Positions 1-55,382 of a DNA stretch of 64,000 nt are shown here, in pieces. The DNA comes from a virus (Duplodnaviria > Caudoviricetes). Both the position numbers and the translations under genes were made by a program. Every line of letters begins with the position of its first letter. The first letter of the stretch is position 1. The stretch lies in IMG/VR virus record IMGVR_UViG_3300020148_000032; one strand, given 5' to 3'. The notes under the pieces are model-generated. The model had not been told where the DNA came from and made no database searches. It saw nothing but the letters and a program-made list of their open reading frames with translations.

Positions 1-891
1 GTTGAAGGCTTCAGTAACTGATTGTGCTGGCATTGATTCGGCAACAGTGAATCCTTTATCCGCCCATTCTTCTTTAAAGTCTTGCGTGCTGTAATAAAGA
101 CCATCGCTCTTTCGTACTGAACCTAAGAAAGCAGTATCATCTTCATCATATTGAAGTACGATTCTATTATCCTTGCCCACAAGTTCAAACAAGAATGTCT
201 TGTCAGGGTGATTCTGAATAAGGTTACTAATTGCATCTAATCGTGCTTCATCTTTACGCAACATATTAGTGTAATAAAGAGCTTGATCGGAAGCAAAGCT
301 TGCCTTTGTTGAGAATGCTGGAAGACCGTCTGGTGCAACATAAAGAATACCTAAGCTACCATCCATCTTGTCAGTGACTTCAGCTTTAGCATTAAAGTCA
401 AGAGTTGAAATATCTGCCTCAGCCGAAACAGTGTTCTCTTCATCACCTAACGCCCAACCTGATTCAAGTTGACTAAGAGTGAAGAATTTACGCCATGGAC
501 GTTGTTCAATAATTGCATCATTCATTGAATTATCACTGTAACGAATTATTAAACCTCTTGCTTGTTTAGTGACTTCATTCCAAAGCCCAGCGTATTGAGC
601 ATTCCTTGTATAGCACAAAATGTGAAGGTCTGGATCTTCAGGGTGATTGTTGTCATAAACATATCCCTCTCTTACCATTTTCTTTAACAAGTCTAAATCA
701 AAGGCCTGCTCTAGAGGGTAATCGTTTTTGATGGAGGTTATTGTTCTTCCAGTCATAACTCTTTCGAAATCTTTTTGAGCCAAGTCTTTTGAAGAGTAAT
801 GATCCTCAATTGGTAACCCAAATGGGCATGACTTTCTTGCCTGGCATATCCCAGGTTCTCCGGTTTCAGGATTTAAATGGTATCGAGTCAT
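1..891 (-). CDS. HCCH-tagged T4 Rnl1/RnlA-like RNA ligase (runs off window start; absent from ORF track)
   Basis: Manual translation: MTRYHLNPETGEPGICQARKSCPFGLPIEDHYSSK..., then ARGLII, RPWRKFF, motif I KMDGSLG, motif III TFLFEL, NRIVLQY; open to base 1. Confidence 0.85.
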   Translation of the reverse strand, partial: MTRYHLNPETGEPGICQARKSCPFGLPIEDHYSSKDLAQKDFERVMTGRTITSIKNDYPLEQAFDLDLLKKMVREGYVYDNNHPEDPDLHILCYTRNAQYAGLWNEVTKQARGLIIRYSDNSMNDAIIEQRPWRKFFTLSQLESGWALGDEENTVSAEADISTLDFNAKAEVTDKMDGSLGILYVAPDGLPAFSTKASFASDQALYYTNMLRKDEARLDAISNLIQNHPDKTFLFELVGKDNRIVLQYDEDDTAFLGSVRKSDGLYYSTQDFKEEWADKGFTVAESMPAQSVTEAFN

Positions 892-922
892 GTTTTCCCC
901 TTGATAAAGATTGTGTGTTTTG

Positions 923-972
923 TTTTCTAAAAAAGGCCCAGGTGTTTTGCATCCTGAGCCTCTTTTAGAAAA
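923..972. terminator. Hairpin/terminator whose outer arms are inverted TTTAGAAAA motifs
   Basis: ttttctaaaaaaggcccagg...cctgagcctcttttagaaaa; the 923-931 arm also serves as the motif upstream of the ligase. Confidence 0.5.
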
Positions 973-981
973 TATTAAGTT

Positions 982-1287
982 CTATACTGGCCTGTATGCA
1001 TCATTATTTGAAGCCTCTGGTGTGGTAGGATCTTCAAACATGATATAGGACTGATCATCAATTGACCATCCGTTGTTCAAAAGAGCTACAACATTTTTAT
1101 TCCCGTGGTGACCACAAAAGAGCAACTCTGAAGTTTTTTCATTACTGTCTTTAATGGCTCGTACGAGAGCTCTAGAGGCGCACGCATCACAACGATCTTT
1201 CTCTAGAAGAGCGTCAGTCTTAATGAAGAGCTCTCTGTTAAGAGAGTCATGCTTAAGAAGACTTTTCTCTTTAGCTAGTGTATTCAT
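982..1287 (-). CDS. Small Zn-binding protein of a family typical of Actinomycetota
   Basis: DRCDAC...ELLFCGHHG motif. Confidence 0.6.
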   Translation of the reverse strand: MNTLAKEKSLLKHDSLNRELFIKTDALLEKDRCDACASRALVRAIKDSNEKTSELLFCGHHGNKNVVALLNNGWSIDDQSYIMFEDPTTPEASNNDAYRPV

Positions 1288-1335
1288 TGTTCTCCCAATC
1301 TTTAGAGTAAATGCATAATGTATAATATCAAAATT

Positions 1336-2775
1336 TTAAACAGTAAGTCTGAAATCCTTTAAATCATAAACCATGTCAGGTGAGCCCACTGCTTTATATA
1401 GCAATCGCTGAATAATTTGCGTGTCTCCAGGCTTGATTCCCATCCAGAACCAATTCTTCCTCATCATTTCATAGTCTTCATGAGAAGTTCCGTAGTTAAA
1501 GTATGTTTCACCATCAGTGATAACAAGAACATAAGACTTAGTCTTGTTCTCCCGGTCGTAAGTCTTAACGTACTGAAGAACGTTATCGATGTTAGTTCCA
1601 AAGCGACCAGCGATCCTCTTAAGAGTAGGGTCAAAAGGAACAACAGTATCAGACCACGTAATAGCATGAGGGATAATGTACTTGTCAGGAATGTTCATAG
1701 CAATGCTCGAAAGCTCTTCAATCGCATAACGCGGGATTGAGCCACTTACATCAAGTGCAAGAATAAGGTGAGGCGTAGTATCACCCTTACCAATCGGGTT
1801 CGGATTCTCACGGAAAGTAGGGAGAACAATTTCTGGGTAAGAATTTGCCATCTTCCGGCGAGGAGAATGCCACGACTCAACATACTTGCGCTTTCCAATA
1901 GACTTGATCTTCGGGTTAATCTTAGCAAGTAGATCATCCCACTCAAGAGTCACTGCAGTGTGGTTATTGCTGAAGACTGAACTCTTGTTAGGGTTAATGT
2001 TGATAGACACACCATTCGAACCCTTGACAGAATAATCATCGTTCTGTGCAAGAGCATCAAGGATGTCTTCAATAGCTTCAGTCATATCATCATTGTCAAT
2101 GTTTTCTGCAGCTTTATTGACAAGAACCGAAACAAGGTCCTTAAAATCTTGCAAGTTCTCTGAATCAACTCCAGTGACACCTCCGCAAGACTCAAAAATA
2201 GGCAATTCCTGCTGTTGAGAGCCAGAATCGCTAGAACCGTGACCTTCGGAAGAATCATTAGATTCGGAACCTTCTCCAGAGTCAGAACCTGATTCGGAGT
2301 CGTTAGGCATTTCAAGCTTGTCTTCAGTCTGGTCCTTAAGAGACATGATGTAATCATATGCCTGCTTTGTAGAAAAGACTGAGAAGTCAGCGCCATAAAG
2401 TGAAAGACCTGACATTCCACCTTCGGGAAGGTCAAGACCAGTGTTACCGAAGAGACCATCGTTGATAATGCACTCGTGAGCGTGAGTCAGAACCTGAGAA
2501 TCAGGATAGCTTACTCTGTCAGCAGCTTCCGAAAGGTGGTTAAGAACAATGTGATACGTCTCGTGAGCAAAAACAGCGCCAAGCTCGATATCAGACAACT
2601 TCTCAGCAAAATGAGGATTCACTTCGAAATAAATCTTCTTCTCATTGTGAACATATTTTACCTGAGCAGTAGGGATATTCTCGTTTTCAATAGGCTGACC
2701 GATTGATCGCGTTAAGGCGAAGAATGAAGGGCTGATAAAGGCGATTGCCTCTAGTCCGCGCTTGAAGTCATTCAT
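1336..2775 (-). CDS. DUF2201-type metallopeptidase + VWA-like domain protein (MoxR partner)
   Basis: HETYH (HExxH), acidic Ser/Gly linker, DVSGS MIDAS, GT, VITDG. Confidence 0.85.
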   Translation of the reverse strand: MNDFKRGLEAIAFISPSFFALTRSIGQPIENENIPTAQVKYVHNEKKIYFEVNPHFAEKLSDIELGAVFAHETYHIVLNHLSEAADRVSYPDSQVLTHAHECIINDGLFGNTGLDLPEGGMSGLSLYGADFSVFSTKQAYDYIMSLKDQTEDKLEMPNDSESGSDSGEGSESNDSSEGHGSSDSGSQQQELPIFESCGGVTGVDSENLQDFKDLVSVLVNKAAENIDNDDMTEAIEDILDALAQNDDYSVKGSNGVSININPNKSSVFSNNHTAVTLEWDDLLAKINPKIKSIGKRKYVESWHSPRRKMANSYPEIVLPTFRENPNPIGKGDTTPHLILALDVSGSIPRYAIEELSSIAMNIPDKYIIPHAITWSDTVVPFDPTLKRIAGRFGTNIDNVLQYVKTYDRENKTKSYVLVITDGETYFNYGTSHEDYEMMRKNWFWMGIKPGDTQIIQRLLYKAVGSPDMVYDLKDFRLTV

Positions 2776-2821
2776 GTCTTTTACCCCTTGTTAGAATGTT
2801 TGAATTAATAGTATCACAGGT

Positions 2822-3892
2822 TTACGCGAGAGTAAAACCCTTAAGGCGCATTTCGTAACGAAGTTCACCCTTCTTGTAAGTGGTCCAACCCATCATAAGA
2901 GTGTTGACCTGTACGTCAGTGAAGTTCTGAAGGATTTCACCCCAGTTTTCAGCAATACGTGCAGGGCCAACACCCTTCGAAAGTGCATTAGCAAGAGCAG
3001 TGTTAAGTCGGTTAATCTCATCATTAGTGAGGTTCCCATCCTTGTAGATTGCTCGAAGAGCAAGGATATTCTTGCTGCTCCTAAGAAGCTCGTTGGGCAT
3101 GTTGACGAACTCGTTAACAGTTAGCCTAGACTTGCTATTCTTTGAGTTTGCGCGAACGTCAGCTGGAGTAAATGCTTCAGCGAGAAGGCGAGTCCACTGG
3201 TCGAGAGAAATAATTGCACCAGGGGTAAGAGTATCACGCAGGGTCTCCTTCTTAGGGATTGCCTGGAATGCGGATACCATCATATCCATACGACGCGGAG
3301 AAAGATAAACAGCCTTCTTAGCAACATTGTTCTTTACGGCGTTCTTATAGCTGTTGTTGTACTCTTCCCAGAGAGACTTTACGACTCGAGCCACATCGGT
3401 ACCGTACTTCTTCGAGAAGTAGCCAGCATCAATCGAAGGGGTAGAGTCGAGGAACACATCGAATCGGTCAAGAAGTGCAGGGTCGATATCATCGACAGTG
3501 TAAGAACCATCGTTAGGGTTGATAGCTGCAGCGACTGCCTTAAGGTTAGGGAGAGGCTCACCGTTAATAGTTCCAAACTGGATGATCTCGAAAAGAGTAT
3601 TCCGAGTCCTGTCATCTGCTCGGTTGAACTCGTCCATGATAACAATTTCTGCCTCATCGAGGTCACGAGGGCGGTAGAACTCTACGGTCTTGGTCTCCTT
3701 ATTAGGAACTGGGATACCCACAAGATCAGTGTAAGGGTCAAGGGTGGCGGTGGAGTAATACTTCACCTTGTACCCAAGCTGGTTTGCAGCTTCAGTAAGG
3801 ATAGCAGTCTTACCAGTACCGAGAGGGCCAGAAATGAGAATGTTGAGTCCATTGCTCATGTAGTTCTTCACGTTGTTTACATTGATAGCCAT
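2822..3892 (-). CDS. MoxR-like AAA+ ATPase
   Basis: Walker A GPLGTGKT, Walker B IVIMDEFNRA, AINP, DPALLDRF, SPR; adjacent to VWA gene. Confidence 0.88.
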   Translation of the reverse strand: MAINVNNVKNYMSNGLNILISGPLGTGKTAILTEAANQLGYKVKYYSTATLDPYTDLVGIPVPNKETKTVEFYRPRDLDEAEIVIMDEFNRADDRTRNTLFEIIQFGTINGEPLPNLKAVAAAINPNDGSYTVDDIDPALLDRFDVFLDSTPSIDAGYFSKKYGTDVARVVKSLWEEYNNSYKNAVKNNVAKKAVYLSPRRMDMMVSAFQAIPKKETLRDTLTPGAIISLDQWTRLLAEAFTPADVRANSKNSKSRLTVNEFVNMPNELLRSSKNILALRAIYKDGNLTNDEINRLNTALANALSKGVGPARIAENWGEILQNFTDVQVNTLMMGWTTYKKGELRYEMRLKGFTLA

Positions 3893-3960: not shown

Positions 3961-4028
3961 CATATGAATAGTGTTCCTCTTTTTATTTTTGTGTTATTAT
4001 ATGAATAATGAGGTGGAAGGATTCTCTT

Positions 4029-4646
4029 ATGGCTTTTATTTCTCTTGAGACTTTATTGAAAGAATATAAACCTGCGTATCCAGAAAATGGAACATGGAAT
4101 GACACGATTAAAGGAATTCTCGATTCTCCCTATGATAATGAGATAGTCACTCTTCTTATGGAAGATTTACAAATGTCAGAATATTTTAGGGAACCAATTG
4201 CTCTCACTCCAGATGAAGATGTTGATGAATATGGATCTTTTGTTTGCAATGGAACGCATCGCGTAGTCGCTCATATCCTTTCCGGCTCGAAAACTGTTTT
4301 TGTTCAATACGGATTTCCAGATATTGACGAGGAGGAATCTATAGAAACCACTGAGATTCTTATTGGATTCAGTAAAAAAGATTTAGAAGAAAGATACTCT
4401 CACGATGATGCTCTTTTTGAATTATTTGACATTATTTTTACCATCTCTCGTTCTTTAAAAATCTCTGACACTCTTTGGATTGAGAGTAATTTTATGAGTG
4501 AGAACTCTGACTCTTTCTATATTTCTTATCCACGATTATCTCCAGAAGTAACTTTCGATGTAATCCGGAAGATTTATGACACTCTTGCGAAGGAAACAGA
4601 CCTTTCGTTCAGTATTTCTTCTAAAAACGAAGTTCTTGATTTTTAA
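4029..4646 (+). CDS. ParB/sulfiredoxin-like N-terminal domain protein
   Basis: FREPI...VCNGTHRVVA resembles the ParB DGxHR motif. Confidence 0.55.
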   Translation: MAFISLETLLKEYKPAYPENGTWNDTIKGILDSPYDNEIVTLLMEDLQMSEYFREPIALTPDEDVDEYGSFVCNGTHRVVAHILSGSKTVFVQYGFPDIDEEESIETTEILIGFSKKDLEERYSHDDALFELFDIIFTISRSLKISDTLWIESNFMSENSDSFYISYPRLSPEVTFDVIRKIYDTLAKETDLSFSISSKNEVLDF

Positions 4647-6035: not shown

Positions 6036-6044
6036 TTTTCTAAA
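6036..6044 (-). promoter_or_regulatory. TTTAGAAAA tagged-gene promoter motif
   Basis: 23 nt upstream of ATG, followed by AAGGAG RBS. Confidence 0.65.
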
Positions 6045-6899: not shown

Positions 6900-6901
6900 T
6901 A

Positions 6902-7738
6902 TTAGTATTTAACATTAAACTTTTCTTCAAGTTCTTTCCAACTTTTCTCAGGAATGTTAACTTCTGCATAATGACCACCCCAAGGGTAATCAGTATTCTT
7001 TAGAACATACTTCATCATTTCATAATAATTCTCTTTGAACGTTTTGCGTGTTTCAAAATCGTTTCTGAGAGTAATAAACTTTGGATCGGCTTTTATTTGT
7101 TCATCAGTTTTACGTTCTTTCTTTAATTTTCGAGTATAATCTCTTAATTCTTCCTCTGCTTTATATGCTTGAGTAAGAGCAATATCTCTAGAGTCTTTAA
7201 ATTCTACATTAACGTAGAAGTTTCTATCAAAATAATCAAATTGTGATTCACTTCTATCATAATTGAAAGAGTTAGCGATAAGTGTCACTTTATCTCTAAT
7301 TACTGAAACTTCTGAGTTAATATTTACAGCAGAGCCACTTAAGTCTTTAGTTTCGTCAGGGTGTGCATTAGATTCAATAATAATACTAATAGCTTGGTGA
7401 CTAGTCTTTCGGACTTTAAAACGGAGACCTTTAGGTAAATAATTCCCTTGTACGGCTTTCTTTAATTCTTCACGAATTGAAGCGGCGATTTGGGTAGTCG
7501 AAAGTTTTTGATCATAATTTGATCCTCGCCAACCATTTCCATATGGAGCTTCAATAGTTTCTCCGTCACCAACAGTATATGTTACTTCATTAAAAGAGTC
7601 AGACTTTGCTTCATATGCTGCTCGTGCTTCTGATTTTGATTCGTAATGCTCTTCAGAAGAGCCAAAAGGGCACCTGCCCTTCTCAGCATGACAGATGCCT
7701 GGATTGCCAGTCTTAGGATTAATGTGATAAGTAGACAT
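6902..7738 (-). CDS. HCCH-tagged LPD29-like (polyvalent-protein-associated) domain protein
   Basis: Start at MSTYH after AAGGAG; GSNYD..LSTTQIAASIREELK...FKVR...YDRSESQFDYFDRNFY. Confidence 0.7.
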   Translation of the reverse strand: MSTYHINPKTGNPGICHAEKGRCPFGSSEEHYESKSEARAAYEAKSDSFNEVTYTVGDGETIEAPYGNGWRGSNYDQKLSTTQIAASIREELKKAVQGNYLPKGLRFKVRKTSHQAISIIIESNAHPDETKDLSGSAVNINSEVSVIRDKVTLIANSFNYDRSESQFDYFDRNFYVNVEFKDSRDIALTQAYKAEEELRDYTRKLKKERKTDEQIKADPKFITLRNDFETRKTFKENYYEMMKYVLKNTDYPWGGHYAEVNIPEKSWKELEEKFNVKY

Positions 7739-7837: not shown

Positions 7838-7949
7838 ATGCTTCTTCTAAAGTAGAATAGTGTTCTTCAAGAGATCCAAAAGGGCAGCGACCATGAGTTG
7901 CACGACAAAGGTCGGCATTTCCACTTTTTGGATTGATATGATATGTCAT
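7809..7949 (-). CDS. Stand-alone HCCH tag peptide (46 aa) or truncated tagged gene
   Basis: MTYHINPKSGNADLCRATHGRCPFGSLEEHYSTLEEAYQGFLFCGK; motif at 7972-7980. Confidence 0.7.
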   Translation of the reverse strand: MTYHINPKSGNADLCRATHGRCPFGSLEEHYSTLEEAYQGFLFCGK

Positions 7950-8110
7950 AACGGCCACCTTTATCCATAAGTTTTCTAAAAGGCTTTTAAATAAAGTTTG
8001 CTTTTTATTCTCATTCATATTAAAATAAATTCAAAAACAAAGAGATTTAATGCATCATCTACATGCTAAAAATAGGTGCTCGAGCACGCGAAAGTTTAGA
8101 AAGATATTGT

Positions 8111-8688: not shown

Positions 8689-8725
8689 TTCTTTTTAGAA
8701 AAGACTTTATACAGAGGAGTTTTTT

Positions 8726-9853: not shown

Positions 9854-10741
9854 TTACTCCTCAATATGAGAAATCAACGCATCATATTCAGACCAGAAAA
9901 CAAATTTGGCAGTCCTCTCTCCGTTAAAATACGCCTCAATATTAATTTTTCCTTGGTCAATATCATCAATAAATGTGTGCAGATTGTGACTAACCATAGT
10001 TAAATCTGTATATCGCACTTTTGTTTGTCCGCGATCTTCTTTAATGTCATAATGAGCAATAGCGATATGCTCGTATTTCTCTTTTATTCTATTATTTATT
10101 TGATCAAAAGTCCAATAAAAATCTTGAGTGTTAGTGAGATTGCTCCCGTCTTTATCAGCTACAATCATTCGTAATTTCTGGTGTTTATAGTCAACAAATA
10201 AAGCAAACCGATGATTTCCAATAGTTTGCCAACTTTGTGTACTCATTGATTTTCTTACATAACCTTTACCAATAAGAGCTTTGAATTTATTTTTATTTAT
10301 AAGTGAGAGTGAACCCAGAGTAACATTATTTCCTCTTCCCGATGATCTATGTGTTTTTAATTCCACTTGACCGAGGTCCGCTGAAGCTTTAGAATCTTTC
10401 TTTAAACCAAAGAGTTCTTCAAGTTTTAATCCAGGGGTTCCTTTATTTTCATCATAACCTTTAAGGGTAAAGAATTTTCCTTTAATGTCTTTTTCGAATT
10501 TGTCTTTTACCTGTTGTGGAGTACTTGCAAGGGAGTTATCTTTTGCGTTGTAAGAAGAATCACTTTTCCCTTCTTTCTTTACGAAAGTTTTTATTTCGGA
10601 AGTTTTATATTGGTTTTCTATATGTTGGTAGGCTGCCGACATAGAATCGAAATGAGATTCGGCGTTTCCATATGGACATGTCTTTTTAACTGCATGACAC
10701 GCGCTAGGAACAAGTGTTTCAGGATTAATGTGATATAGCAT
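9854..10741 (-). CDS. HCCH-tagged MvaI/BcnI-family endonuclease
   Basis: Tag; GTPGLKLEELFGL..D...ADLGQVELKTHR...VTL; motif 10764-10772. Confidence 0.75.
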   Translation of the reverse strand: MLYHINPETLVPSACHAVKKTCPYGNAESHFDSMSAAYQHIENQYKTSEIKTFVKKEGKSDSSYNAKDNSLASTPQQVKDKFEKDIKGKFFTLKGYDENKGTPGLKLEELFGLKKDSKASADLGQVELKTHRSSGRGNNVTLGSLSLINKNKFKALIGKGYVRKSMSTQSWQTIGNHRFALFVDYKHQKLRMIVADKDGSNLTNTQDFYWTFDQINNRIKEKYEHIAIAHYDIKEDRGQTKVRYTDLTMVSHNLHTFIDDIDQGKINIEAYFNGERTAKFVFWSEYDALISHIEE

Positions 10742-10782
10742 TCAAACCTCTCTTTACTAAATCTTTTCTAAAAAGCGAGGTT

Positions 10783-12298: not shown

Positions 12299-14431
12299 AT
12301 GGAACTCAAGAAAGAAGATAGCATCATAGAAGCTTTCGGAGTTGACTACACAAAACTTGCTTCTGAAGGAAAGTTAGATCCAGTCATTGGGCGCGATGAA
12401 GAAATACGTCGAATTATTCAAGTCCTCGCGCGGAGAACTAAAAATAATGCTGTTATTATTGGTGAACCCGGAGTTGGAAAGACCGCAATTGTAGAAGGGC
12501 TTGCTCAAAGGATTATTAATAAAGACGTCCCGAATAGCCTTAAGGATTGCTCACTTGTCTCTATAGAGATTAGCTCTCTCATTGCTGGAGCCGCCTATAG
12601 GGGGCAATTTGAGGAAAGAATGAAGAAACTTCTTGAAGAAGTAGAAGCTTCAGAAGGAAAAATTATACTTTTTGTTGATGAACTTCATACTATTATGAGA
12701 GCAGGTGGAGGAGAAGGTTCAGTTGATGCTGGAAATATTCTTAAACCTATGCTTGCAAGAGGGAAACTCCGCATGATTGGAGCCACAACTTTTAACGAGT
12801 ATCGCACTTCTATAGAGAAAGATTCTGCTCTCGAAAGACGATTCCAACCAATTTATGTTGGCGAACCTTCTATTGATGATGCTATTACAATCCTTAGAGG
12901 AATTCAAGAAAAGTACGAGGTTCACCACGGAGTGAATATTACTGATGATGCTCTTGTTGCTGCTGTGCAATTATCTCAACGTTACCTCCCAGACCGATTC
13001 TTGCCAGACAAAGCAGTAGACCTTATTGATGAAGCCACTGCTGCTTTAAAAATACAGCTTGATTCAATGCCAGCAGAACTCGATAAGCAATTAAGATCAC
13101 TTCAGAGGTTGAAAATTGAGAGAACTCAAGTCTCTAAAGAAACATCTAAAGAATCAATCGAAAGACTTGCAGAGATTGATGATGAAATCGCTAAACTTGA
13201 GAAAAACACTAATACCTTGAAAGAAAAATGGGATAAAGAAAAATTCTTTGTTCAATCTTTATCAAAGCATACTGAGATGCTAGAAAAATTAAAACTATCT
13301 CTTGATCAAGCTGAACGCGAGGGAGAGCTTGAAACAGCCGGTCGTATTAAATATGGAGAAATCCCTGTTGTTCAAAAGAAAATAGATGAGGACAGAGCGG
13401 GTCTGGATAGTATCCCTCTAGAAGAAAGACTTCTTAGAGAAGAAGTTGAGAAGAAGGACATTGCTGAGGTTATTTCTCGATGGACAGGTATACCCCTTGA
13501 CAAACTTCTTACTGAGGAAATCTCTAAACTTGCTAATTTAGAAGATTTACTACACAAGAGAGTTGTCGGTCAAGATGAAGCAATTCATTCTATTTCTAAT
13601 AGTATTCGTAGATCAAGGGCTGGCATTTCAGACGAAAACAAACCTATCGGATCATTTTTATTCTTGGGGCCTACTGGAGTAGGTAAAACTGAACTTGCTA
13701 AAGCTCTTGCTGAACAATTATTCAATGATGAGAACGCTCTTGTGCGTATTGACATGTCAGAATACATGGAAGCTCATTCAGTGGCAAGACTCATTGGTTC
13801 ACCTCCAGGTTATGTTGGTTATAACGAGGGTGGCCAGCTTACTGAAATTGTAAGAAGGAGACCTTACAGTGTTGTCCTTTTTGATGAAGTAGAAAAAGCC
13901 CATCCTGATATCTGGAATGCTCTTTTACAAGTCCTTGATGATGGAAGACTTACTGACGGCCAAGGTCGCACTGTCAACTTTAAAAACTCTGTTATCATAC
14001 TTACGAGTAATATTGGTAGCCCACTTATTCTCTCTTGGGATGGGAAAGATAAAGGATCTCTAGAAAATGAAGTAATGAAAGAATTAAAGAATTCTTTCAG
14101 ACCTGAATTCCTTAATAGAATTGATGAAATCGTCTTATTTGACAGAATAAGCAATTCAAATATGGAGGCAATCGTTCGTAAGGAACTTGATAGAACTGCT
14201 GTTAGAGTCAAGTCTAATCGCGGTATCTCCGTTATCTTTGACGACACCTTAGTTCACGAACTATCTGAACGAGGTTACGACCCGGCATTTGGAGCTAGAC
14301 CACTTAAGAGACTTATCCAAAACGAAGTTCTTAATCTTCTTGCTGAAAAAATTATTAAAGGTGAATTTGTAGAATCTGACGAGGTGAGAGTTTCATATAC
14401 TTACGGTCAAGTCGTAATGGAAAAGCTGTAA
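12299..14431 (+). CDS. clpB: ClpB disaggregase lacking the N-terminal Clp-repeat domain
   Basis: GKLDPVIGRDEEIRR at residue ~25, GEPGVGKT, LFVDELH, coiled-coil M-domain, GPTGVGKTE, RIDMSEY, GARPLKR. Confidence 0.93.
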   Translation: MELKKEDSIIEAFGVDYTKLASEGKLDPVIGRDEEIRRIIQVLARRTKNNAVIIGEPGVGKTAIVEGLAQRIINKDVPNSLKDCSLVSIEISSLIAGAAYRGQFEERMKKLLEEVEASEGKIILFVDELHTIMRAGGGEGSVDAGNILKPMLARGKLRMIGATTFNEYRTSIEKDSALERRFQPIYVGEPSIDDAITILRGIQEKYEVHHGVNITDDALVAAVQLSQRYLPDRFLPDKAVDLIDEATAALKIQLDSMPAELDKQLRSLQRLKIERTQVSKETSKESIERLAEIDDEIAKLEKNTNTLKEKWDKEKFFVQSLSKHTEMLEKLKLSLDQAEREGELETAGRIKYGEIPVVQKKIDEDRAGLDSIPLEERLLREEVEKKDIAEVISRWTGIPLDKLLTEEISKLANLEDLLHKRVVGQDEAIHSISNSIRRSRAGISDENKPIGSFLFLGPTGVGKTELAKALAEQLFNDENALVRIDMSEYMEAHSVARLIGSPPGYVGYNEGGQLTEIVRRRPYSVVLFDEVEKAHPDIWNALLQVLDDGRLTDGQGRTVNFKNSVIILTSNIGSPLILSWDGKDKGSLENEVMKELKNSFRPEFLNRIDEIVLFDRISNSNMEAIVRKELDRTAVRVKSNRGISVIFDDTLVHELSERGYDPAFGARPLKRLIQNEVLNLLAEKIIKGEFVESDEVRVSYTYGQVVMEKL

Positions 14432-14534
14432 GGTCAAACATGTCTCTCTTCTGTGCATGACATTCGTTTATGTCACCAGTATGAGGGTTTATATGATACA
14501 TGAAATTTTTCTAATCATTTTAGTTAAAATATAA

Positions 14535-16724: not shown

Positions 16725-16765
16725 TCTAAACCTTTTAATTCAACATTGTTATCTATGTTTCTATA

Positions 16766-18719: not shown

Positions 18720-18821
18720 GACTTATACCCCTTTAGTGTATGATAAAAACTTTTCTAAATCATTCTTCCGAAAGGTATGAAATAATATCCTTATTAGAAG
18801 AGCTTGTTAATCCTCCTCATT

Positions 18822-20835: not shown

Positions 20836-20873
20836 AGAAACTCCTTCGATATGAACTTATCTAACTTATTGGG

Positions 20874-21748: not shown

Positions 21749-21805
21749 TGCAAATACTCCAAAAATAAGATTTAAAGTAATTTCTAACCAAAAATGATAA
21801 CAACT

Positions 21806-28089: not shown

Positions 28090-28875
28090 TTATTTTAATG
28101 ACTTGAAAACAAATGCGCGGTCATTAAGGAAATTAAATAATTCTTCATCTCTCAAATCTTTTTTAATCACTTGAAAATTAATTTCTTTAAGAGAATTAAA
28201 GAATAGATCTCTTTCTTCGGGAGAGAATCTCACATCAAAATCTAAACCTTGATCTATTGCTCTGTTCCCAAGAATGAGTGTTCTATAACATGACTTGATT
28301 GACTTTAATTCCCTTTTATTAGTTAATTCTTTATCTTTCATTCTTCGAAGTGTAGAAAGGGTGAACGAAATTGCTTTATCATGATACTCATAAGGAGAAT
28401 ATCGAAAATTCTGCAAGAAGTCTTGATACTTAGTGTCAGAATATTGTAGAGTGTGAGAATAAAGTAGGTCGATTTCTGGAAGAGAAGTATCAAAAAGTCT
28501 TCTTACATAATGAAATACTGGATACACTCTTAAATCATATTCATCATTGATGTACTGCTTATCATTAGACTTCCCTTCAATAATGATAGATAAGTCAATG
28601 TCGCTTGTTGGAAGAGATAAACCATACATGTGACTTCCAGAATAACCATAAGATTGAACGTCTCTTACTGACGGGTGTTCTCTAATAGCTTTAGCAAAAA
28701 TTTCTGGAAGGTTTTCTTTTTTAGTAATAGATTCAATAGCCATTGTTTGCATGACTTTTTCGTATGTCTCTCTTGCTTTTTCTGGAGTATCTTCGTGTAT
28801 GAAACTATATTTGCAAGCTCTAGTTGTTGCCTGACATGGTTTAACTTCACCATTTTTAGTAACGTGATACTTCAT
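28090..28875 (-). CDS. HCCH-tagged Pol-beta-superfamily nucleotidyltransferase
   Basis: YHVTKNGEVKPCQATTRACKYSFIH; GSHMYGLSLPTSDID; TTTAGAGAA at 28894-28902. Confidence 0.78.
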   Translation of the reverse strand: MKYHVTKNGEVKPCQATTRACKYSFIHEDTPEKARETYEKVMQTMAIESITKKENLPEIFAKAIREHPSVRDVQSYGYSGSHMYGLSLPTSDIDLSIIIEGKSNDKQYINDEYDLRVYPVFHYVRRLFDTSLPEIDLLYSHTLQYSDTKYQDFLQNFRYSPYEYHDKAISFTLSTLRRMKDKELTNKRELKSIKSCYRTLILGNRAIDQGLDFDVRFSPEERDLFFNSLKEINFQVIKKDLRDEELFNFLNDRAFVFKSLK

Positions 28876-28899
28876 GAGTTTCCTTTTTTAACCTTCTCT

Positions 28900-28965
28900 A
28901 AAAAGAATTAGACGCGAGGCCCCTTGGAGGATAGCGATAAGGAAGAACGTTGGGGCCCCGCGTAT
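28900..28965 (-). ncRNA. Candidate small RNA: 12-bp GC stem with C/U-rich loop
   Basis: Minus strand ACGCGGGGCCCC-(28-nt loop with CUUCCUU, CCUCC)-GGGGCCUCGCGU then U-tract; TATAAT just upstream. Confidence 0.4.
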
Positions 28966-36883: not shown

Positions 36884-37006
36884 ATGAAAACTTATCATGT
36901 TAATCCAGAAGCTGGGAAAATAGATATTGTTCCATATGATAAACAAAATATTGAAATAAGGGGTTGGTTACCGCATTATAAAGACATGACTTTTGTTGAA
37001 AGTTGA
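36884..37006 (+). CDS. Degenerate stand-alone tag peptide lacking cysteines (40 aa)
   Basis: MKTYHVNPEAGKIDIVPYDKQNIEIRGWLPHYKDMTFVES; TATAGATAC ends at 36877, 7 nt before the ATG. Confidence 0.5.
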   Translation: MKTYHVNPEAGKIDIVPYDKQNIEIRGWLPHYKDMTFVES

Positions 37007-38387: not shown

Positions 38388-38756
38388 TATGAACCCCTTT
38401 TAATTTTATTTACCTATCTAAAAAGAATCTAGAAGAGAGACCGCTCCTAGTAATATAAGTAGTTAAGTAGTATTGTTACTTTATAAACTATTTATAAAGA
38501 ATTTAAAAAACAAGCTTATAAATAGTACCATGCTAAGTAAAGTCAAAAACAAGTTTTTAGGCTTTTTAGGTTTTTGTGGAGCAAGAAGATTTGAAAATAC
38601 TAAGTAAGTTTTATTATTATTGGTAGTTTATTTTAGACTGCAGTCTTAGAAAGGAAAAGTCAGAGGTATGTCGTTCATCATAACTGCACTAAAGTTCTGT
38701 TAGAAAGCAGCTTAGAGTTAGTAGCCGTACAATTTAGACACACTCCTACAAAACGG

Positions 38757-40266: not shown

Positions 40267-40755
40267 TCATCCCATATCACCTGTATTCTCATCCGTGAGT
40301 GCATTAACCGATTCTGCCCGGTATATTAATTCTAATTTTAGCCACTCTGGAATTGCGGATTCCTCTCGTGGGTGCATTTCGAGGTCTTCTATGACATTTT
40401 CAATAGGAAACGTAGTTCCATCGGCAGTTTTGGGCATTTCAGTATAATTAAATGCTATTTGAAAATTTCCAAGATCTTCAATAGTCGGATTAAGAACAAT
40501 GATACAGTTAAACCATGCACCTTGATTCTTAGTATACATTTGCTCTCTTAAAAGGATAAGATCATAAGAAAGTTGTGACGCTATTTCTGGGGTGAAAAGC
40601 TTTGTTTCATCAAGGTTAGAGATCGCATTAATTCTATTGTGAGTAGGTATGAATTCTACAGTAAAACGACCTATTGGTTTTTCTTCAAAAGAGTCATGCA
40701 ATTTGTCCATAATATGAAAAACCATTTGTTTTGTTTCTTCAGAATATTCATACAT
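40267..40755 (-). CDS. Polymorphic-toxin immunity-like protein (YezG/DUF600-like, actinobacterial type)
   Basis: LREQMY...GAWF...FNY..P...DLEMHPR....IPEWL. Confidence 0.6.
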   Translation of the reverse strand: MYEYSEETKQMVFHIMDKLHDSFEEKPIGRFTVEFIPTHNRINAISNLDETKLFTPEIASQLSYDLILLREQMYTKNQGAWFNCIIVLNPTIEDLGNFQIAFNYTEMPKTADGTTFPIENVIEDLEMHPREESAIPEWLKLELIYRAESVNALTDENTGDMG

Positions 40756-52006: not shown

Positions 52007-53293
52007 TTAATCTTTTACGTAGCCTTCTACAGCTTTTGGACGTTGACCTTTAGGAGCTTCGCGTAATCTTTCAGCGAAACCATAAAGAGCTTTAAATGTC
52101 ATAATGGCGTCAGGCAAAGCGCTGTGCGCGTCCTCATAAGGAATACCATTTGCTTCACTGAAGCTCTCTAATCTGTTATTCTTACCCTCATCAAAAAGAA
52201 TGGTTGAAATAACACGAGTATCACTCCAGGAAACAATAGGTGACATTTCATTCTTGTGGCGTGAAGAAATATTCAAACCAGAAAAGACTTCACTCTTTTG
52301 CCAGAAACCATTGAGGTGTTGTGAGAGGTAGGACTTTTCAAAAGCATCATTATGTGCAACGTTGATGGAATCTGGATCATTAAGGAATTTCCCCACAGTT
52401 TCTTGAACTTTAGGGTCATTGAATTTTCTTTTCCCTACTACGTCTTGAGGTCTAATTTTGTGAACTGCGGTGGCTCCCACTCCGATAACATCTCTTACTT
52501 CAGAATTATTAATGTCAAATCTTTCTTCATATTCTTCAAGAATTTCTCCGCTAGGTGAAACCTTGACGATACCGATCTCAATAATTTCGCCCATGTTAGG
52601 GTCAAGTGATGTTGTTTCAAGGTCAACGAATACTCTATTCTTTTTCCAAGTAGTGGGTCCACCTTGTTGGAATAATGAAACAATGTATTCATCTTTAGTC
52701 ATTCCAGATTCTTCGTTATAATTGTAATAGAGTTCTTCAGCATCTTTACGAGAAATCTCATTCCAAGAAGCTAATTGATTAATGGTAGCGTCTTCCATTT
52801 CTGGGCTAATTTCTTCATTAAAATTCACATTAAGACGCATTGTTGCTCTATAAGCCTTTTGTGCTCTCTTGCTAGCATAAGTTTTTGGAGGGCTTGGATA
52901 TTTATCATCAGCATCAAGTAAACCCATTTCTTTAGCATAGTGTCGCGCGAGCCTCATATTGTGATAATCAACTCTTTGCTTTTCATAGATTTCTCTTAAT
53001 TCATCATGAAGATCATCAATGACTTGAGGGTCAACCATACCTAGAAGAGCAGACACTTTTAATTCTTCAAGTTGGTTCTCACGAGGGTCAGAATCATTTG
53101 CTACAGATGTTTCAAATGCGTCTCTATACTTCTCAATATTGTCAAGAATCGTTTTCGCTTTTTCAGAGTATTTGTTTTGCGCCTCTTCCTTACTAGAGTA
53201 ATGATCTGTTTCTAAATCTCCAAAAGGGCATGTTTTCTTAGCGCGACAAATACCTGGGTTACCCGTTTTAGGGTTAATGTGAAATCTTTTCAT
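52007..53293 (-). CDS. HCCH-tagged DEDDh 3'-5' exonuclease (DnaQ-like)
   Basis: Tag FHINPKTGNPGICRAKKTCPFGDLETDHY; VDLETT, AHNDAFE, HSALPDA; motif 53350-53358. Confidence 0.85.
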   Translation of the reverse strand: MKRFHINPKTGNPGICRAKKTCPFGDLETDHYSSKEEAQNKYSEKAKTILDNIEKYRDAFETSVANDSDPRENQLEELKVSALLGMVDPQVIDDLHDELREIYEKQRVDYHNMRLARHYAKEMGLLDADDKYPSPPKTYASKRAQKAYRATMRLNVNFNEEISPEMEDATINQLASWNEISRKDAEELYYNYNEESGMTKDEYIVSLFQQGGPTTWKKNRVFVDLETTSLDPNMGEIIEIGIVKVSPSGEILEEYEERFDINNSEVRDVIGVGATAVHKIRPQDVVGKRKFNDPKVQETVGKFLNDPDSINVAHNDAFEKSYLSQHLNGFWQKSEVFSGLNISSRHKNEMSPIVSWSDTRVISTILFDEGKNNRLESFSEANGIPYEDAHSALPDAIMTFKALYGFAERLREAPKGQRPKAVEGYVKD

Positions 53294-53363
53294 GAAAGTT
53301 AAACTCCAATAAGCGAATTTGAATAATATCGTGATTGTGTAATGAATCCTTTTCTAAAGAGAA

Positions 53364-53401: not shown

Positions 53402-53411
53402 GACCTGGGAG

Positions 53412-53837
53412 TCAGAGGAGAGTATCCTTTGAAAGATCCTTAATAACTTCAGGATCATATACCTTCGAAACCTCGCCCGAGGCTTCGAAAACTAGACGGC
53501 TAGCGTAAAGTCGCTTTGACTTCTTTGCCTGCGCCACCTCGAAAAATGTGTCTCCTACCTGGTGCATTCCGATGAGTGACTTGTCACCTTCGGAAGGGAC
53601 AACACCCTCCTTGAGGGGGAAAGTGTTCAAGCGAGAAATGAAGATACTTGCAACAGCTGCATCGAAACGATTAGCCGTCCAGATTGCTCGCATGGTATCA
53701 ACAAACAGTTCGGGAACCTGACGCTCACGAATGAGAGTAGTAATGAACGCTTCTTGATTAGGAGTCACGGGTGTAAGCTTTCGTGCCTCGGTGTTAGCAA
53801 TTTGAGAAACGGTAGTCATGTTAATCCTTAGGTTCAA
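53412..53837 (-). CDS. Hypothetical phage protein
   Basis: TPNQEAFITTL; TTGACT-17-TAGAAT promoter at 53847-53875. Confidence 0.6.
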   Translation of the reverse strand: MNLRINMTTVSQIANTEARKLTPVTPNQEAFITTLIRERQVPELFVDTMRAIWTANRFDAAVASIFISRLNTFPLKEGVVPSEGDKSLIGMHQVGDTFFEVAQAKKSKRLYASRLVFEASGEVSKVYDPEVIKDLSKDTLL

Positions 53838-53878
53838 GTTAAGATTATTCTATATTTGATTTTTCTAAAAGTCAATAT

Positions 53879-54331
53879 TTAGAAAGTCCAAATTTCGATA
53901 GTGATTTCTGGGTAATGCTCGGCCTGAGTATCAATAATATTACGCACCAAGTCCCAATCAAGACCACCAATTCCCGCTCCAATGCGGGGGAGTGCAAGAG
54001 AGACGATTCCATTCTCACGCAAATAGGCGAGAGTGTTTGCAAGAGAGCTGTCAAGCCACTGGTAACTTGCATTGGGACCTGGGAGATCCTGTGTTGCCAT
54101 GTTCATGATAAGGGTTCCGTCAGAAGCCATGACGGGAAGAACCGTACCGGGGGTAAGAAGCCCTTCATCACAAGCCTTCTTGTAAGGTGCAAAGACTTCT
54201 GGATAAAGAGAGCGAAGGGTCTTAGCAATTCCTCTTCCCATTACTCCCTTTACATTGACTCCATGCCCGTAAGCTTCAGCGTGTGAGGTGAAAAGATCAC
54301 CATTCTTCTCAATAATGTTTGTAGGTGACAT
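53879..54331 (-). CDS. Macro domain (ADP-ribose hydrolase, Poa1p/DarG-like)
   Basis: GDLF, HGVNVKGVMGRGIA, LPRIGAGIGGLDW; TTGACA-17-TAGAAT at 54357-54385. Confidence 0.88.
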   Translation of the reverse strand: MSPTNIIEKNGDLFTSHAEAYGHGVNVKGVMGRGIAKTLRSLYPEVFAPYKKACDEGLLTPGTVLPVMASDGTLIMNMATQDLPGPNASYQWLDSSLANTLAYLRENGIVSLALPRIGAGIGGLDWDLVRNIIDTQAEHYPEITIEIWTF

Positions 54332-54503
54332 GATACTCTCCTTAAAGTATATTTTCATTCTATCATTATGTGAGAAGAATGTCAATTAGTCGTGTCAATA
54401 CTTTCACAATCATAGTAATCAGTAGCCGTATTGTCACTCTTTATACACATGAGTGAGTTTTCTCTGTTTGGTACTTTTATGTATTGAAGATAGAAAACGC
54501 GAA

Positions 54504-55382
54504 TTAGTGTCGTGCCGTTATAGCCATTGAAACAACTTTAATCATTTCCCCTAATGCTTCGTAAGAGCTACTTTCGAGATCTTCCTGAGCTTTCAAGTTC
54601 TCTAAACGTTCTTTTTCGACCTCTAGATCTTCAATGTCATATGTGGAAATTCTCTCTACTAACTCTTCAGCGTTGCGTGGATTTCCATAATATTTAGGGA
54701 GGGGTTTTAGCTCTTTAGCGTATCCAGCTATTTGAATAAGTGAGTAATATTCTTCAACTACTTCTGACCATCCAGATTCGCTACAGCGATCATATGCTGA
54801 CAAGAAAATAAGATTCTTTGTTTCTTCTGATAGTCCACGATTAGCATTTGGGAATGATTCTTCAAGAACTTTTTGACCATCATTTTGATTCATCTTGGGT
54901 TGCTTTCGGAATGCGTAGAATGCTCCTGTTAAGCCATGACTCTTTGTTTCATCAGTATCTATTGATTCTAAAGAATGAGTTCTTACTGATTCAATAATCT
55001 TTGCATAGGGAATCATCTCTGTTAGCAAGATTTGTGGCGATGAAACTCCTGCTTTGTTAATTGCTTCCCTGTAAATAATCTTGCAGAGTTCATCATCTAC
55101 ATCACTGAGAGAGTATGGGAAAGCTTCTTTAATAATTTGAGGAAAGTTGTCTTCTCTAATATTTTTCTTACCTTCGAGTTTGTCCATAGTTTTATAGAAT
55201 GGGATATCTGTTTCTGTTTTACGCGAAAGGGTGGGTAAACCATGTAATTGCGAGAGGGTTTCTTCGATTGCTTTAATGGCTTCTTCTTTAGAGTCATAAT
55301 GTGTTGAATGTATGGGACATTCTTTCTTTTCAGCATTGCAAACTCTCGGAAACCCGTCAGCTGGTGAGATATGATAGCGCAT
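54504..55382 (-). CDS. HCCH-tagged protein with internally duplicated ~55-aa helical domain
   Basis: MRYHISPADGFPRVCNAEKKECPIHSTHYDSKEEA after GAGGAG RBS. Confidence 0.75.
   Translation of the reverse strand: MRYHISPADGFPRVCNAEKKECPIHSTHYDSKEEAIKAIEETLSQLHGLPTLSRKTETDIPFYKTMDKLEGKKNIREDNFPQIIKEAFPYSLSDVDDELCKIIYREAINKAGVSSPQILLTEMIPYAKIIESVRTHSLESIDTDETKSHGLTGAFYAFRKQPKMNQNDGQKVLEESFPNANRGLSEETKNLIFLSAYDRCSESGWSEVVEEYYSLIQIAGYAKELKPLPKYYGNPRNAEELVERISTYDIEDLEVEKERLENLKAQEDLESSSYEALGEMIKVVSMAITARH

Follow-up and report, generated by a model that had tools for sequence, protein, structure and literature searches.

An unnamed His-Cys-Cys-His domain on unrelated enzymes of giant elements: a candidate docking handle tied to a transfer or secretion machine

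A folded tag of about 45 residues was found to head a series of unrelated proteins in the window, by which we mean the whole 64,000-nucleotide stretch of viral DNA analyzed here. The tagged genes share a dedicated promoter-like box, and in complete relatives this box also stands before the operon of a membrane apparatus. The best-supported reading is that the tag is a candidate docking handle tied to a transfer or secretion machine. The overall explanation, in which co-regulated tagged enzymes dock on one partner, plausibly such a machine, is a serious possibility that we place a little short of probable.

To locate the tag, an HMM was built from 20 copies and compared with all stop-to-stop six-frame translations of the window. 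The results revealed 20 full copies (E 1e-14 to 1e-24), each at the first Met of its own ORF and each keeping H, C, C and H; they comprised 18 intact tagged genes and two tag-only stumps (Table 1). Below them ranked a 19-residue fragment and then the ORF at 36884, and weaker matches in the window were noise (E > 1). The original prediction had described the motif at 21 starts, and translation confirmed it at all 21. Its list needed three amendments: the entries at 7949 and 9851 are the two tag-only stumps, the plus-strand ORF at 36884 is degenerate, retains only the first ~13 tag residues, has no Cys and is at best a decayed copy, and a further decayed copy on the minus strand had been missed (14355-14501).

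Table 1. Tagged genes and decayed tag copies in the window, with the promoter-like boxes upstream of them (each box lies on the strand of its gene).
Feature	Coordinates	Strand	Tag E	Other matches and remarks	Box	Box coordinates	Box distance upstream of gene start (nt)
Tagged gene, Rnl1-type RNA ligase	1..891	-	1.5e-18	PF09511 E 3.8e-10; C-terminus beyond window	TAGAAA	924..929	38
Tagged gene, 456 aa	4643..6013	-	6e-22	no Pfam or PHROG match for the cargo	TTTTAGAAAAG	6037..6042	29
Tagged gene, 278 aa, weak LPD29-like	6902..7738	-	1e-24	PF18847 E 5e-4, below Pfam's cut-off	ATTTAGAAAAA	7763..7768	30
Tag-only stump, 46 aa	7809..7949	-	4e-22	truncated copy	TTTTAGAAAAC	7973..7978	29
Tagged gene, 128 aa	8111..8497	+	8e-20		GTTTAGAAAGA	8097..8102	just 14, atypical spacing
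Tagged gene, 254 aa	8726..9490	+	6e-23		TTTTAGAAAAG	8696..8701	30
Tag-only stump, 41 aa	9726..9851	-	1e-19		none		
Tagged gene, 295 aa, MvaI/BcnI-type nuclease	9854..10741	-	1e-20	PF15515 E 4.9e-13	TTTTAGAAAAG	10765..10770	29
Decayed copy	14355..14501	-	8e-8 over 19 residues	first tag half MYHINPHTGDINEC, then diverged			
Tagged gene, 321 aa	15759..16724	-	1e-16		TAGATA (variant)	16750..16755	31
Tagged gene, 180 aa	17345..17887	-	3e-14	divergent tag	none		
Tagged gene, 265 aa	17922..18719	-	1e-21		ATTTAGAAAAG	18752..18757	38
Tagged gene, 391 aa	19660..20835	-	2e-20		TTAGATAAG (variant)	20858..20863	28
Tagged gene, 124 aa	21374..21748	-	9e-17	smallest intact	GGTTAGAAATT	21781..21786	38
Tagged gene, 171 aa	22197..22712	-	3e-18	directly behind the 23407 gene	none		
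Tagged gene, 231 aa	22712..23407	-	7e-23	phrog_20074 E 9e-27, only from residue 78	CGTTAGAAAAA	23440..23445	38
Tagged gene, 468 aa	25710..27116	-	4e-18	phrog_2319 E 2e-51, from residue 66	TTTTAGAAAAA	27153..27158	42
Tagged gene, 261 aa, weak nucleotidyltransferase-like	28090..28875	-	5e-15	PF01909 E 0.004, below Pfam's cut-off	TTTTAGAGAAG	28895..28900	25
Degenerate 40-aa ORF, doubtful copy	36884..37006	+	0.019	only YHVNPEAGK kept, no Cys			
Tagged gene, 170 aa	37875..38387	-	7e-20		TTTTAGATAGG (variant)	38415..38420	33
Tagged gene, 428 aa, DEDDh exonuclease	52007..53293	-	2e-21	PF00929 E 1.1e-12	CTTTAGAAAAG	53351..53356	63
Tagged gene, 292 aa	54504..55382	-	1.5e-18				

The four residues H5, C16, C23 and H31 were invariant in the 18 aligned window copies, as they were in 141/141 copies drawn from a wide range of elements, and very probably form one Zn site. 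About 20 tag positions are conserved across elements of 35-58% GC, including the surface polar residues N7, T10, S34, K35, R39 and E43. Modeled alone with AF2 (pLDDT 80), the tag is predicted to be a compact, independently folding domain of ~45 residues with a beta-hairpin, a Cys-bearing knuckle and an alpha-helix. The same fold was obtained inside the full-length exonuclease protein (pLDDT 91-96 for the tag, 91 for the protein), which is ordered as tag, long helical hairpin and DEDDh exonuclease; its structure matches were of the DnaQ/RNase T fold, and the modeled tag caps a 49-residue helix, apart from the enzyme. No match to the domain was obtained in Pfam, NCBIfam, PHROGs or PDB, in agreement with the original prediction that it belongs to no named family. 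The interpretation in the original prediction holds in part: a real, portable module fused to unrelated cargos, probably Zn-binding, is supported.

The cargos were as diverse as had been claimed, with no pair in the window alike at E < 1e-6. Regarding their names, Pfam upheld the RNA ligase, the MvaI/BcnI-type nuclease and the DEDDh exonuclease; the nucleotidyltransferase and LPD29 fell below its cut-offs, and the kinase-like, OB-fold and DUF4241-like assignments were not recovered with Pfam or PHROG. In other elements, the cargos included HD, HNH, ART, GNAT and RNase_T domains, Zeta-toxin/AAA_33 kinases, HEAT/LRV repeats and coiled coils, a spectrum that supports the proposed effector-like character. 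Orthologous cargos retain the tag across elements at 31-49% identity, suggesting that the fusions are stable; tagged orthologues of the 891 RNA ligase gene (44-48% identity) and of the 27116 gene occur in both G001 and G003. Among the 5' regions of the window tags, no exact DNA match was longer than the box itself (16 nt), and the copies are old paralogs without sign of recent 5' shuffling. Modularity is supported by homologous cargos with and without the tag (among 29 exonuclease homologues, 10 carry it and 19 have a different N-terminus).

At E <= 1e-3, the tag was detected in 5,647 cluster representatives, and in nearly all of them it begins at residue 1. The claim that it always lies at the extreme N-terminus holds for all window copies but has exceptions elsewhere: among the 150 best matches, two had a C-terminal tag and nine a second copy. 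These C-terminal and tandem arrangements indicate that it acts as a domain and not as an N-terminal signal peptide. The carriers are giant elements of 0.3-0.8 Mb with mostly orphan genes and mixed phage/plasmid character; complete elements hold 9-21 copies, and tag-bearing contigs reach 727-828 kb, with GC contents from 35 to 58%. The tag is nearly absent from cells, as judged from one sampled actinobacterial class (1/401 genomes).

The box, tTTAGA(A/G)Aa, lies 25-50 nt upstream of the ATG of tagged genes, one per gene, and is nearly absent upstream of untagged genes in the window and four other elements. TAGAAA preceded 14/19 tagged and 4/68 untagged genes in the window (p 5e-9), and TAGAGA preceded 11/13 and 0/246 in G001 (p 1e-17). 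The corresponding counts were 5/9 and 2/308 in G002 (TTTAGAA) and 4/13 and 0/362 in G003 (TTAGAGA), and six of the eight tagged genes in L001 had the box. The position matrix revealed a compact box without a -35 element. All three complete tag-bearing relatives encode a Tad/TcpE/VirB4-like apparatus, whose operon begins with a 66-71-aa membrane protein followed by TadC-TadA-TadB-TcpE-AAA_10-CpaB-CpaE. That membrane protein gene was the only untagged gene boxed in 3/3 relatives, with a chance expectation that we estimate at ~4e-4 over 109 orthologue triplets; the link was examined in these three related elements and not in the window's own replicon.

The conjugative channel named in the original prediction thereby gains some circumstantial support, because the tagged genes share their box with the apparatus operon in all three relatives. 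A common promoter box indicates co-expression, not physical interaction. In the docking reading, the tagged genes and the machine would belong to a single regulon under a factor specific to the element, possibly the one sigma-70-family factor found in each relative. The tag would serve as a protein-protein handle bringing dozens of unrelated enzymes (RNA-repair, nuclease, exonuclease, HD, kinase, ADP-ribosyltransferase and GNAT types) to one common partner, for which the most plausible candidate is the transfer or secretion machine expressed alongside them. They may then be delivered into a cell that the element has just entered, or stand ready for it, and serve there for establishment and counter-defense. 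Against this reading, several cargos, among them the RNA ligase and the proofreading-type exonuclease, could work well in the producing cell, and type IV secretion signals described so far lie at the C-terminus or internally and are not N-terminal Zn domains. In addition, a clear coupling protein of the VirD4 type was not found, and the AAA_10 protein gave only weak TraG/TrwB matches.

The nearest functional analogy for docking would be the XVIPCD, reportedly a C-terminal, non-Zn domain of ~120 aa that binds VirD4; the tag, in contrast, has 45 aa, is usually N-terminal, carries H-C-C-H and is unrelated in sequence. The X-Tfes, bacteria-killing effectors of type IV secretion in Xanthomonas and Stenotrophomonas, carry this one domain on many unrelated enzymes and are encoded alongside a type IV-type machine, as are the tagged genes here (PMC8740702, PMC6536674). 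Polymorphic toxin and effector families (LXG/WXG100, MIX, PAAR-Rhs) likewise join a constant N-terminal module, in their case a trafficking domain, to variable C-terminal enzymes (Zhang et al. 2012, PMC3482391), and HNH, ART, Zeta-toxin kinase and restriction-type nuclease cargos are toxin-like. The tagged set nevertheless includes many repair or housekeeping-type cargos and diverged old paralogs instead of recently swapped cassettes, and no trafficking domain or secretion signal of a known kind was detected in tagged proteins. The carriers resemble the Inocles of oral Streptococcus, giant plasmid-like extrachromosomal elements that likewise measure hundreds of kb, have a low GC content, consist largely of unknown genes and carry transfer genes of the VirB4 type; the searched text of that description mentions neither Tad genes nor a common N-terminal module (PMC12340149).

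An unlikely alternative is that the H-C-C-H finger tethers the enzymes to DNA or RNA, for instance tRNA or the single strand undergoing transfer, and thereby enriches them at their substrate. Small Zn domains are often nucleic-acid binders, many of the cargos that could be identified have nucleic acids as substrates (RNA ligase, MvaI/BcnI nuclease, DEDDh exonuclease, HNH, HD, NTase), and the exonuclease tag is modeled at the tip of its helical hairpin like a reach-out arm. DNA binding has also been proposed for a Zn-ribbon expansion in phage G, which likewise has tens of small Zn-module copies in one giant element (Iyer et al. 2021, PMC7824862). That module differs in motif, being built on two Cys pairs (CPICG ... 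CPHGC), and the proteins that contain it are small and stand alone; the tag profile yielded nothing at E <= 1 in the 497-kb phage G genome. Moreover, the tag averages a net charge of -0.1 and its conserved helix is acidic (S-K-E-E-A-R-x-A-Y-E), suggesting that it is not a typical nucleic-acid finger. ART, GNAT, HEAT/LRV repeats and coiled coils are not nucleic-acid enzymes, and a tether leaves unexplained the dedicated promoter class and the box common to the membrane machine.

Somewhat less likely again is a regulatory or quality-control handle, by which a chaperone or protease of the element would recognize the tag, or the tag would sense Zn or redox state, so that the potentially harmful enzymes could be kept back, activated or removed together. 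Candidate recognizers include an N-domain-less ClpB-like ATPase, a Lon-like protease and a MoxR/VWA pair. The 710-aa ClpB-like ATPase (12299-14431) lies among tagged genes and is conserved in 3/3 relatives at 38-42% identity, and one relative gave a strong 'ATP-dependent protease' PHROG match. In both the window and L070, a MoxR and DUF2201 pair adjoins tagged genes, and each of the two has homologues in G002, but the pair is missing from some tag-bearing elements. Cys/His Zn sites can be redox-sensitive; degrons, however, are usually short and unstructured, and the tag is a folded Zn domain.

It is improbable that the tag has no common destination and is a folding cap, inherited with its promoter by old duplications, that aids expression or solubility, the co-regulation then reflecting a single class of promoter used by accessory genes that stand alone. 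The age of the paralogs, the joint travel of tag and promoter, and the stumps and decayed copies, which resemble ordinary birth-and-death turnover, are consistent with such a cap. On the other hand, the ~20 conserved positions, surface polar ones included, are more than a cap would be expected to need, and orthologous cargos retain the tag despite their divergence. The cargos, being unrelated, cannot descend from one ancestor gene, so fusion must have occurred many times.

The least probable account, and a very remote one, is a capsid or inner-body tag of a huge phage, which would dock cargo in the prohead and perhaps be cut off after the conserved A-[YF]-E, the cargo then being injected with the DNA. 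In its favor, the three complete relatives are listed as viruses in IMG/VR, and the cargo spectrum resembles that of the injected polyvalent proteins reportedly described by Iyer and colleagues in 2017. The tag end, A-[YF]-E (A 74%, E 91%), also resembles the A-X-E site at which the SPN3US prohead protease removes N-terminal propeptides (PMC10052503). Like the tag, the T4 capsid targeting sequence and the SPN3US/phiKZ-type head-protein propeptides (PMC10052503) are N-terminal addresses on unrelated proteins, but they are short unstructured peptides, and their phages have clear genes for capsid and prohead protease. The tag, in contrast, folds as a Zn-type domain that can be C-terminal or tandem, and its A-[YF]-E lies inside a continuous, confidently modeled helix. 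Phage_capsid (HK97) and Terminase_6N had no match in the three complete relatives; neither had Peptidase_S77, a result that is uninformative because its control was silent too. Among the 25 commonest families that Pfam and PHROG scans listed for 107 proteins of one relative, none was a head, packaging or tail family, although divergent capsid genes could escape this search of three Pfam families and one 107-protein scan. A terminase-like stretch inside an SNF2 helicase was a stray exception in that scan. The contigs, of 727-828 kb, reach beyond the largest phage genome known to us (~735 kb), and the box is not common to any recognizable structural operon. Since the relatives lack capsid and terminase matches and the box heads the Tad/TcpE/VirB4-like operon instead, a capsid address, the first destination proposed for the tag, is unlikely.

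In summary, the tag heads a large, old accessory-gene family in giant elements. It represents an unnamed and widespread module, and its dedicated box, together with the place of this box before the Tad/TcpE/VirB4-like operon, is new.

A tag profile was built from 20 copies of the His-Cys-Cys-His domain and used to search the window in all stop-to-stop frames. It was observed that 20 matches (E 1e-14 to 1e-24) each lay at the first Met of its ORF; the next-best matches were a 19-residue fragment (E 8e-8) and the ORF at 36884 (E 0.019), and the rest was noise. The original prediction had placed the motif at 21 starts, and translation from those starts found it at each of them. In the profile check, 20 of the 21 were full copies at ORF starts, and the one at 36884 proved to be a degenerate 40-aa ORF. 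In the alignment of the window copies, the His, Cys, Cys and His ligands were invariant. Eighteen tagged genes in the window were still intact, and the stumps and decayed copies listed in the table show turnover of tagged genes.

Positions of tag remnants, boxed or neighbouring genes and operons in the window, in the three complete IMG/VR relatives bearing the tag (G001, G002, G003) and at two other loci (L019, L070)
Sequence	Position	Strand	Feature	Basis
Window	7949		Tag-only stump	Translation
Window	9851		Tag-only stump	Translation
Window	36884		Tag copy; 40-aa ORF with the first third of the motif only, without Cys	Translation
Window	14501 (start)	-	Additional decayed tag copy	Translation
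Window	40267-40755	-	Untagged gene; TTAGA(A/G)A box 35 nt upstream	
Window	53412-53819	-	Untagged gene; TTAGA(A/G)A box 49 nt upstream	
Window	1336-3892	-	MoxR-type AAA ATPase and DUF2201_N (putative metallopeptidase) pair beside tagged genes	
L070	16247-18960	+	MoxR-type AAA ATPase and DUF2201_N pair beside tagged genes	
G002	283181-285911	+	Homologues of the MoxR-type ATPase and the DUF2201_N protein, adjoining each other	
Window	12299-14431	+	ClpB-like two-ring AAA+ ATPase, 710 aa	
Window	43654-49011	-	1,785-aa ORF	
L019 (NZ_LMFI01000005.1)	4001-4695		Two adjacent tagged genes, 98 and 134 aa, on a chromosome contig of Nocardioides sp. Root140	
G003	51267-40801	-	Hybrid operon	Pfam matches
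G001	200972-212775	+	Hybrid operon	Synteny
G002	236695-250142	+	Hybrid operon	Synteny

The cargos, that is, the remainders of the tagged proteins, had been described as largely unrelated, and no pair of window cargos was alike at E < 1e-6. Pfam upheld the names Rnl1-type RNA ligase, MvaI/BcnI-type nuclease and DEDDh exonuclease; the matches behind the names NTase and LPD29 fell under Pfam's cut-offs, and the other proposed names were not recovered. The PHROG matches of two cargos started only past the tag, at residues 66 and 78, indicating that those cargo families exist in phages without the tag. Polar, disorder-type residues were slightly richer just after the tag (0.59) than in the rest of the protein (0.54). 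Across elements, the tag was retained on orthologous cargos at 31-49% identity, namely the RNA ligase, a phrog_2319-like protein and the exonuclease. Homologues of the exonuclease (n = 29) all lay on metagenomic contigs, several of 0.3-0.67 Mb; 10 of the 29 carried the tag, and 19 had a different N-terminus. The majority of cargos were found in one element only, and the few recognisable elsewhere among 149 hits were HD, Zeta-toxin/AAA_33 kinases, HNH, ART, GNAT and RNase_T.

The original prediction knew of no named family for the domain, and the database searches agreed with it. Scanning 20 window or locus proteins with Pfam-A 2025, NCBIfam 20 and PHROGs v4 gave nothing covering residues 1-50, and PDB profile searches with the tag returned chance matches only (E 0.56 and E 5.2). 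In an alignment of 141 copies, H5, C16, C23 and H31 were invariant in all 141, and about 20 further positions were strongly conserved. In the AlphaFold2 model of the tag (pLDDT 80), residues 3-6 and 13-16 paired in a beta-hairpin, a loop bore Cys, and a helix started at residue 35. Within the full-length model of the exonuclease protein (whole-model pLDDT 91), the tag fold reached pLDDT 91-96, and its helix, continuing over 49 residues, led into a long hairpin of helices by which the tag was kept clear of the DEDDh domain; in this one full-length model, the segment behind the tag was a rigid helix, not a floppy linker. Zn-binding domains in general have four invariant metal ligands in a compact fold; the tag has four invariant putative ligands and a compact modelled fold (pLDDT 80-96), and it is a new mini-domain, probably Zn-binding. 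Foldseek with the tag model gave no match at E <= 0.001, a wide VIA-align search gave weak similarity to Kunitz-like topologies only (best Z 4.1), and in the ESM Atlas, feature-based and shape-based searches yielded unnamed viral clusters only. Complex prediction of a tag homodimer with Zn scored 0.00, which was no verdict either way.

The profile search of 1.84 billion cluster representatives revealed 5,647 tag-bearing representatives at E <= 1e-3, of which 1,711 reached E <= 1e-10. The hits listed were 59-469 aa long; the domain began at residue 1 in almost all, and it was N-terminal in about 97%. Among the best 150 hits, two had calling artefacts upstream of a Met, in two the domain was C-terminal and came after a similar Ser/Asn-rich linker, and nine contained a second copy. 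The C-terminal and two-copy cases indicated a domain with an N-terminal preference and not a signal obliged to sit there; the claim that it always stands at the extreme N-terminus thus held in the window but not elsewhere. Proteins P0003 (146 aa) and P0051 (149 aa) carried tags at opposite ends of a spacer of about 60 residues, and P0002 (275 aa) carried two in tandem; such two-tag proteins could be bridges or competitors for the tag's presumed binding partner.

The window proteins sit on a 436,884-bp contig, and contigs of 727, 740 and 828 kb (52-58% GC over the parts read) carried other tagged proteins; the 828-kb contig (L001) had eight or nine tagged genes within one 20-kb stretch. IMG/VR was scanned for the tag with a 7-copy alignment, and the three records rated complete (309-437 kb) showed 11-21 profile matches each, corresponding to 9-13 tagged genes each by our own gene calls in the parts read. 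Neither a megablast search with 20 kb of the window nor tblastn with the tag found a match in GenBank phages or PLSDB plasmids, and a word-indexed protein search for the tag region found nothing but the query. Among species-representative genomes, the tag was limited to one Nocardioides isolate and one metagenome bin, and it was absent from all 400 other sampled genomes of the actinobacterial class of Nocardioides. The bin, with 19 tag copies on short contigs, is probably a mis-binned element. The isolate, strain Root140, was the one cultured organism in which the tag turned up, and experiments could start from it.

A short promoter-like box was associated with the tagged genes. In the window, 14 of 19 tagged genes had TAGAAA no more than 70 nt upstream, against 4 of 68 untagged genes (p 5e-9). 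Unbiased k-mer enrichment recovered the same box in four other elements: as TAGAGA in G001 (tagged 11/13, untagged 0/246, p 1e-17), TTTAGAA in G002 (5/9 and 2/308), TTAGAGA in G003 (4/13 and 0/362) and TAGA(A/G)A in L001 (tagged 6/8); further contigs also carried it. When 51 upstream regions were aligned on the box, the consensus was t-T-T-A-G-A-(A/G)-A-a, and no conserved -35 element was seen, an arrangement resembling -10-only promoters, among them the T4 late promoters. The longest exact DNA match among the 5' regions of the window tags was 16 nt and was the box itself, indicating that the tag copies are old and that the box has been kept by selection and not by recent duplication. In several cases, including the genes starting at 891 and 28875, the T-run before the box came after a GC-rich inverted repeat, so the T-run may be the terminator tail of the upstream gene together with the start of the box. 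The two untagged window genes listed in the table with a TTAGA(A/G)A box may be further regulon members.

Only one untagged gene was boxed in all three complete relatives, namely the first gene of an operon, with TTAGAAAA 44-59 nt upstream; the chance expectation for such sharing was estimated at about 4e-4 from background rates and 109 orthologue triplets. The operon encoded, in order, a small membrane protein (66-71 aa), two unknowns, TadC-like, TadA-like and TadB-like proteins, an unknown, TcpE, AAA_10, a CpaB/RcpC-like protein and a CpaE/ParA-like protein. The G003 matches were T2SSF, T2SSE (E 1.5e-32), T2SSF, TcpE (E 1e-10) and AAA_10 (E 2.4e-49), with RcpC (weak, E 5e-4) and CbiA/ParA as the last. 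The AAA_10 ATPase was short (394 aa) and VirB4/TraG-like; no VirD4 was identified in the operon, where the AAA_10 protein had weak TraG/TrwB hits only. Tad pilus genes and TcpE with a VirB4/TraG-like ATPase normally belong to separate systems, and the relatives' operon combined the features of a Tad (type IVc) pilus and a Tcp-type conjugation apparatus.

Each complete relative contained three or four T2SSE-family ATPases, a strong AAA_10 (VirB4-like) match and one sigma-70-family gene. Searches of the three with PF05065 (Phage_capsid) and PF03237 (Terminase_6N) gave no match, although divergent genes may escape these models; Peptidase_S77 (PF03420) matched neither the relatives nor the controls, so that search was uninformative. 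Pfam and PHROG scans of 107 G003 proteins, with the 25 most frequent families listed, revealed replication and repair genes, Ter/TelA-type stress genes, PASTA domains, homing endonucleases and rIIA/B-like proteins, and no head or tail families among those listed. These results showed that the tag-bearing giant elements have a mixed phage/plasmid character, with the tag in multiple copies. G001, G002 and G003 (loci L022-L067), rated complete viruses, gave no capsid or terminase match in these searches and carry the Tad/TcpE/VirB4-like operon, several T2SSE ATPases, a sigma factor, DnaE, gyrase, RecA and Ter/TelA-type genes. The three may be giant conjugative-type elements, not phages. At the ends of G001 (IMGVR_UViG_3300012642_000011), matches were mirrored at x and 437,577-x to at least 107.6 kb and not at 130.8 kb; either G001 has inverted terminal repeats longer than 100 kb or its assembly contains a palindromic artefact.

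The untagged neighbours in the window included the ClpB-like ATPase, which is without the usual N-domain and is kept in all three complete relatives at 38-42% identity. The 1,785-aa ORF had a sub-threshold RCC1-like repeat hit as its sole match; PHROGs gave nothing for it, and the three relatives lacked a homologue.

We compared the tag with known systems. The closest functional analogy was the XVIPCD of type IV-secreted antibacterial effectors, a C-terminal domain of about 120 aa that binds the all-alpha domain of VirD4, whereas the tag is 45 aa long and N-terminal in most hits. The N-terminal head-targeting peptides of T4 and SPN3US offered a further analogy. The tag ends in A-[YF]-E (A 74%, E 91%), a motif lying inside a continuous helix in the model; the prohead-protease propeptide site is L/I-X-E or A-X-E. 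Polymorphic toxins likewise join a constant N-terminal trafficking module to variable C-terminal domains; only part of the tag cargos are toxin-like. Toxins of that kind have a cognate immunity gene directly downstream and swap cassettes by recombination. Long stretches of common DNA were not seen between the tag regions, where the 16-nt box is the longest exact match. Membership in the phage G Zn-ribbon expansion (Iyer et al. 2021) was rejected, as there was no homology to YP_009015343-type Zn-ribbons. The tag profile gave 0 hits at E <= 1 in the phage G genome (NC_023719), whose gp32 has a different motif with two Cys pairs, and that expansion is unrelated to the tag. The tag domain belongs to none of these systems, differing in sequence, size, position or context, and was rated a constant marker domain, of putative function, on variable effectors.

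A dedicated box is common to the tagged genes and, in the three relatives, to the Tad/TcpE/VirB4-like operon. We infer that the tagged genes and the membrane machine belong to a single regulon, which the element's own sigma factor may read, and that the tag is a handle by which these proteins dock onto one common partner, most plausibly the membrane machine expressed with them. A bolder proposal, which we consider rather unlikely as it stands, is that a new route of protein delivery, leading through this machine into recipient or target cells, recognizes its cargo by the H-C-C-H domain. A giant extrachromosomal element would then encode a hybrid Tad-pilus/TcpE/VirB4 machine, and a single class of -10-only promoters would switch on the machine and the tagged genes together. 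The machine would translocate dozens of pre-made enzymes for RNA repair, nucleolytic and modifying activities into the recipient or target cell, and any enzyme could become cargo by fusion to the 45-residue, putatively Zn-binding module. Alternatively, the tag may be a quality-control handle, a reading consistent with the conserved N-domain-less ClpB-like ATPase. A capsid address, for which head-targeting peptides provide the analogy, is argued against by the lack of virion genes in the Phage_capsid and Terminase_6N searches of the three relatives, and a mere folding cap by the conserved polar surface of the tag. A simple DNA or RNA finger accords poorly with a mean net charge of about zero over the 141 copies and with cargos of which some are not nucleic-acid enzymes.

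The tag defines a widespread domain family without a name. Clustered at 50% identity, the family comprises thousands of clusters; a complete element has 9-21 copies, and this 64-kb window by itself has about 20. Its members mark out a separate class of co-regulated accessory proteins in barely described giant mobile elements, and tag and box together provide a handle for annotating hundreds of orphan genes. The presumed regulon, with one sigma factor and one 8-9-nt box, is testable at the bench. Moreover, among the IMG/VR "complete viruses" of 0.3-0.44 Mb, at least three may be conjugative-type elements and not phages. If the tag is indeed a docking or delivery signal, it would be a compact, portable tag directing proteins to a bacterial machine.
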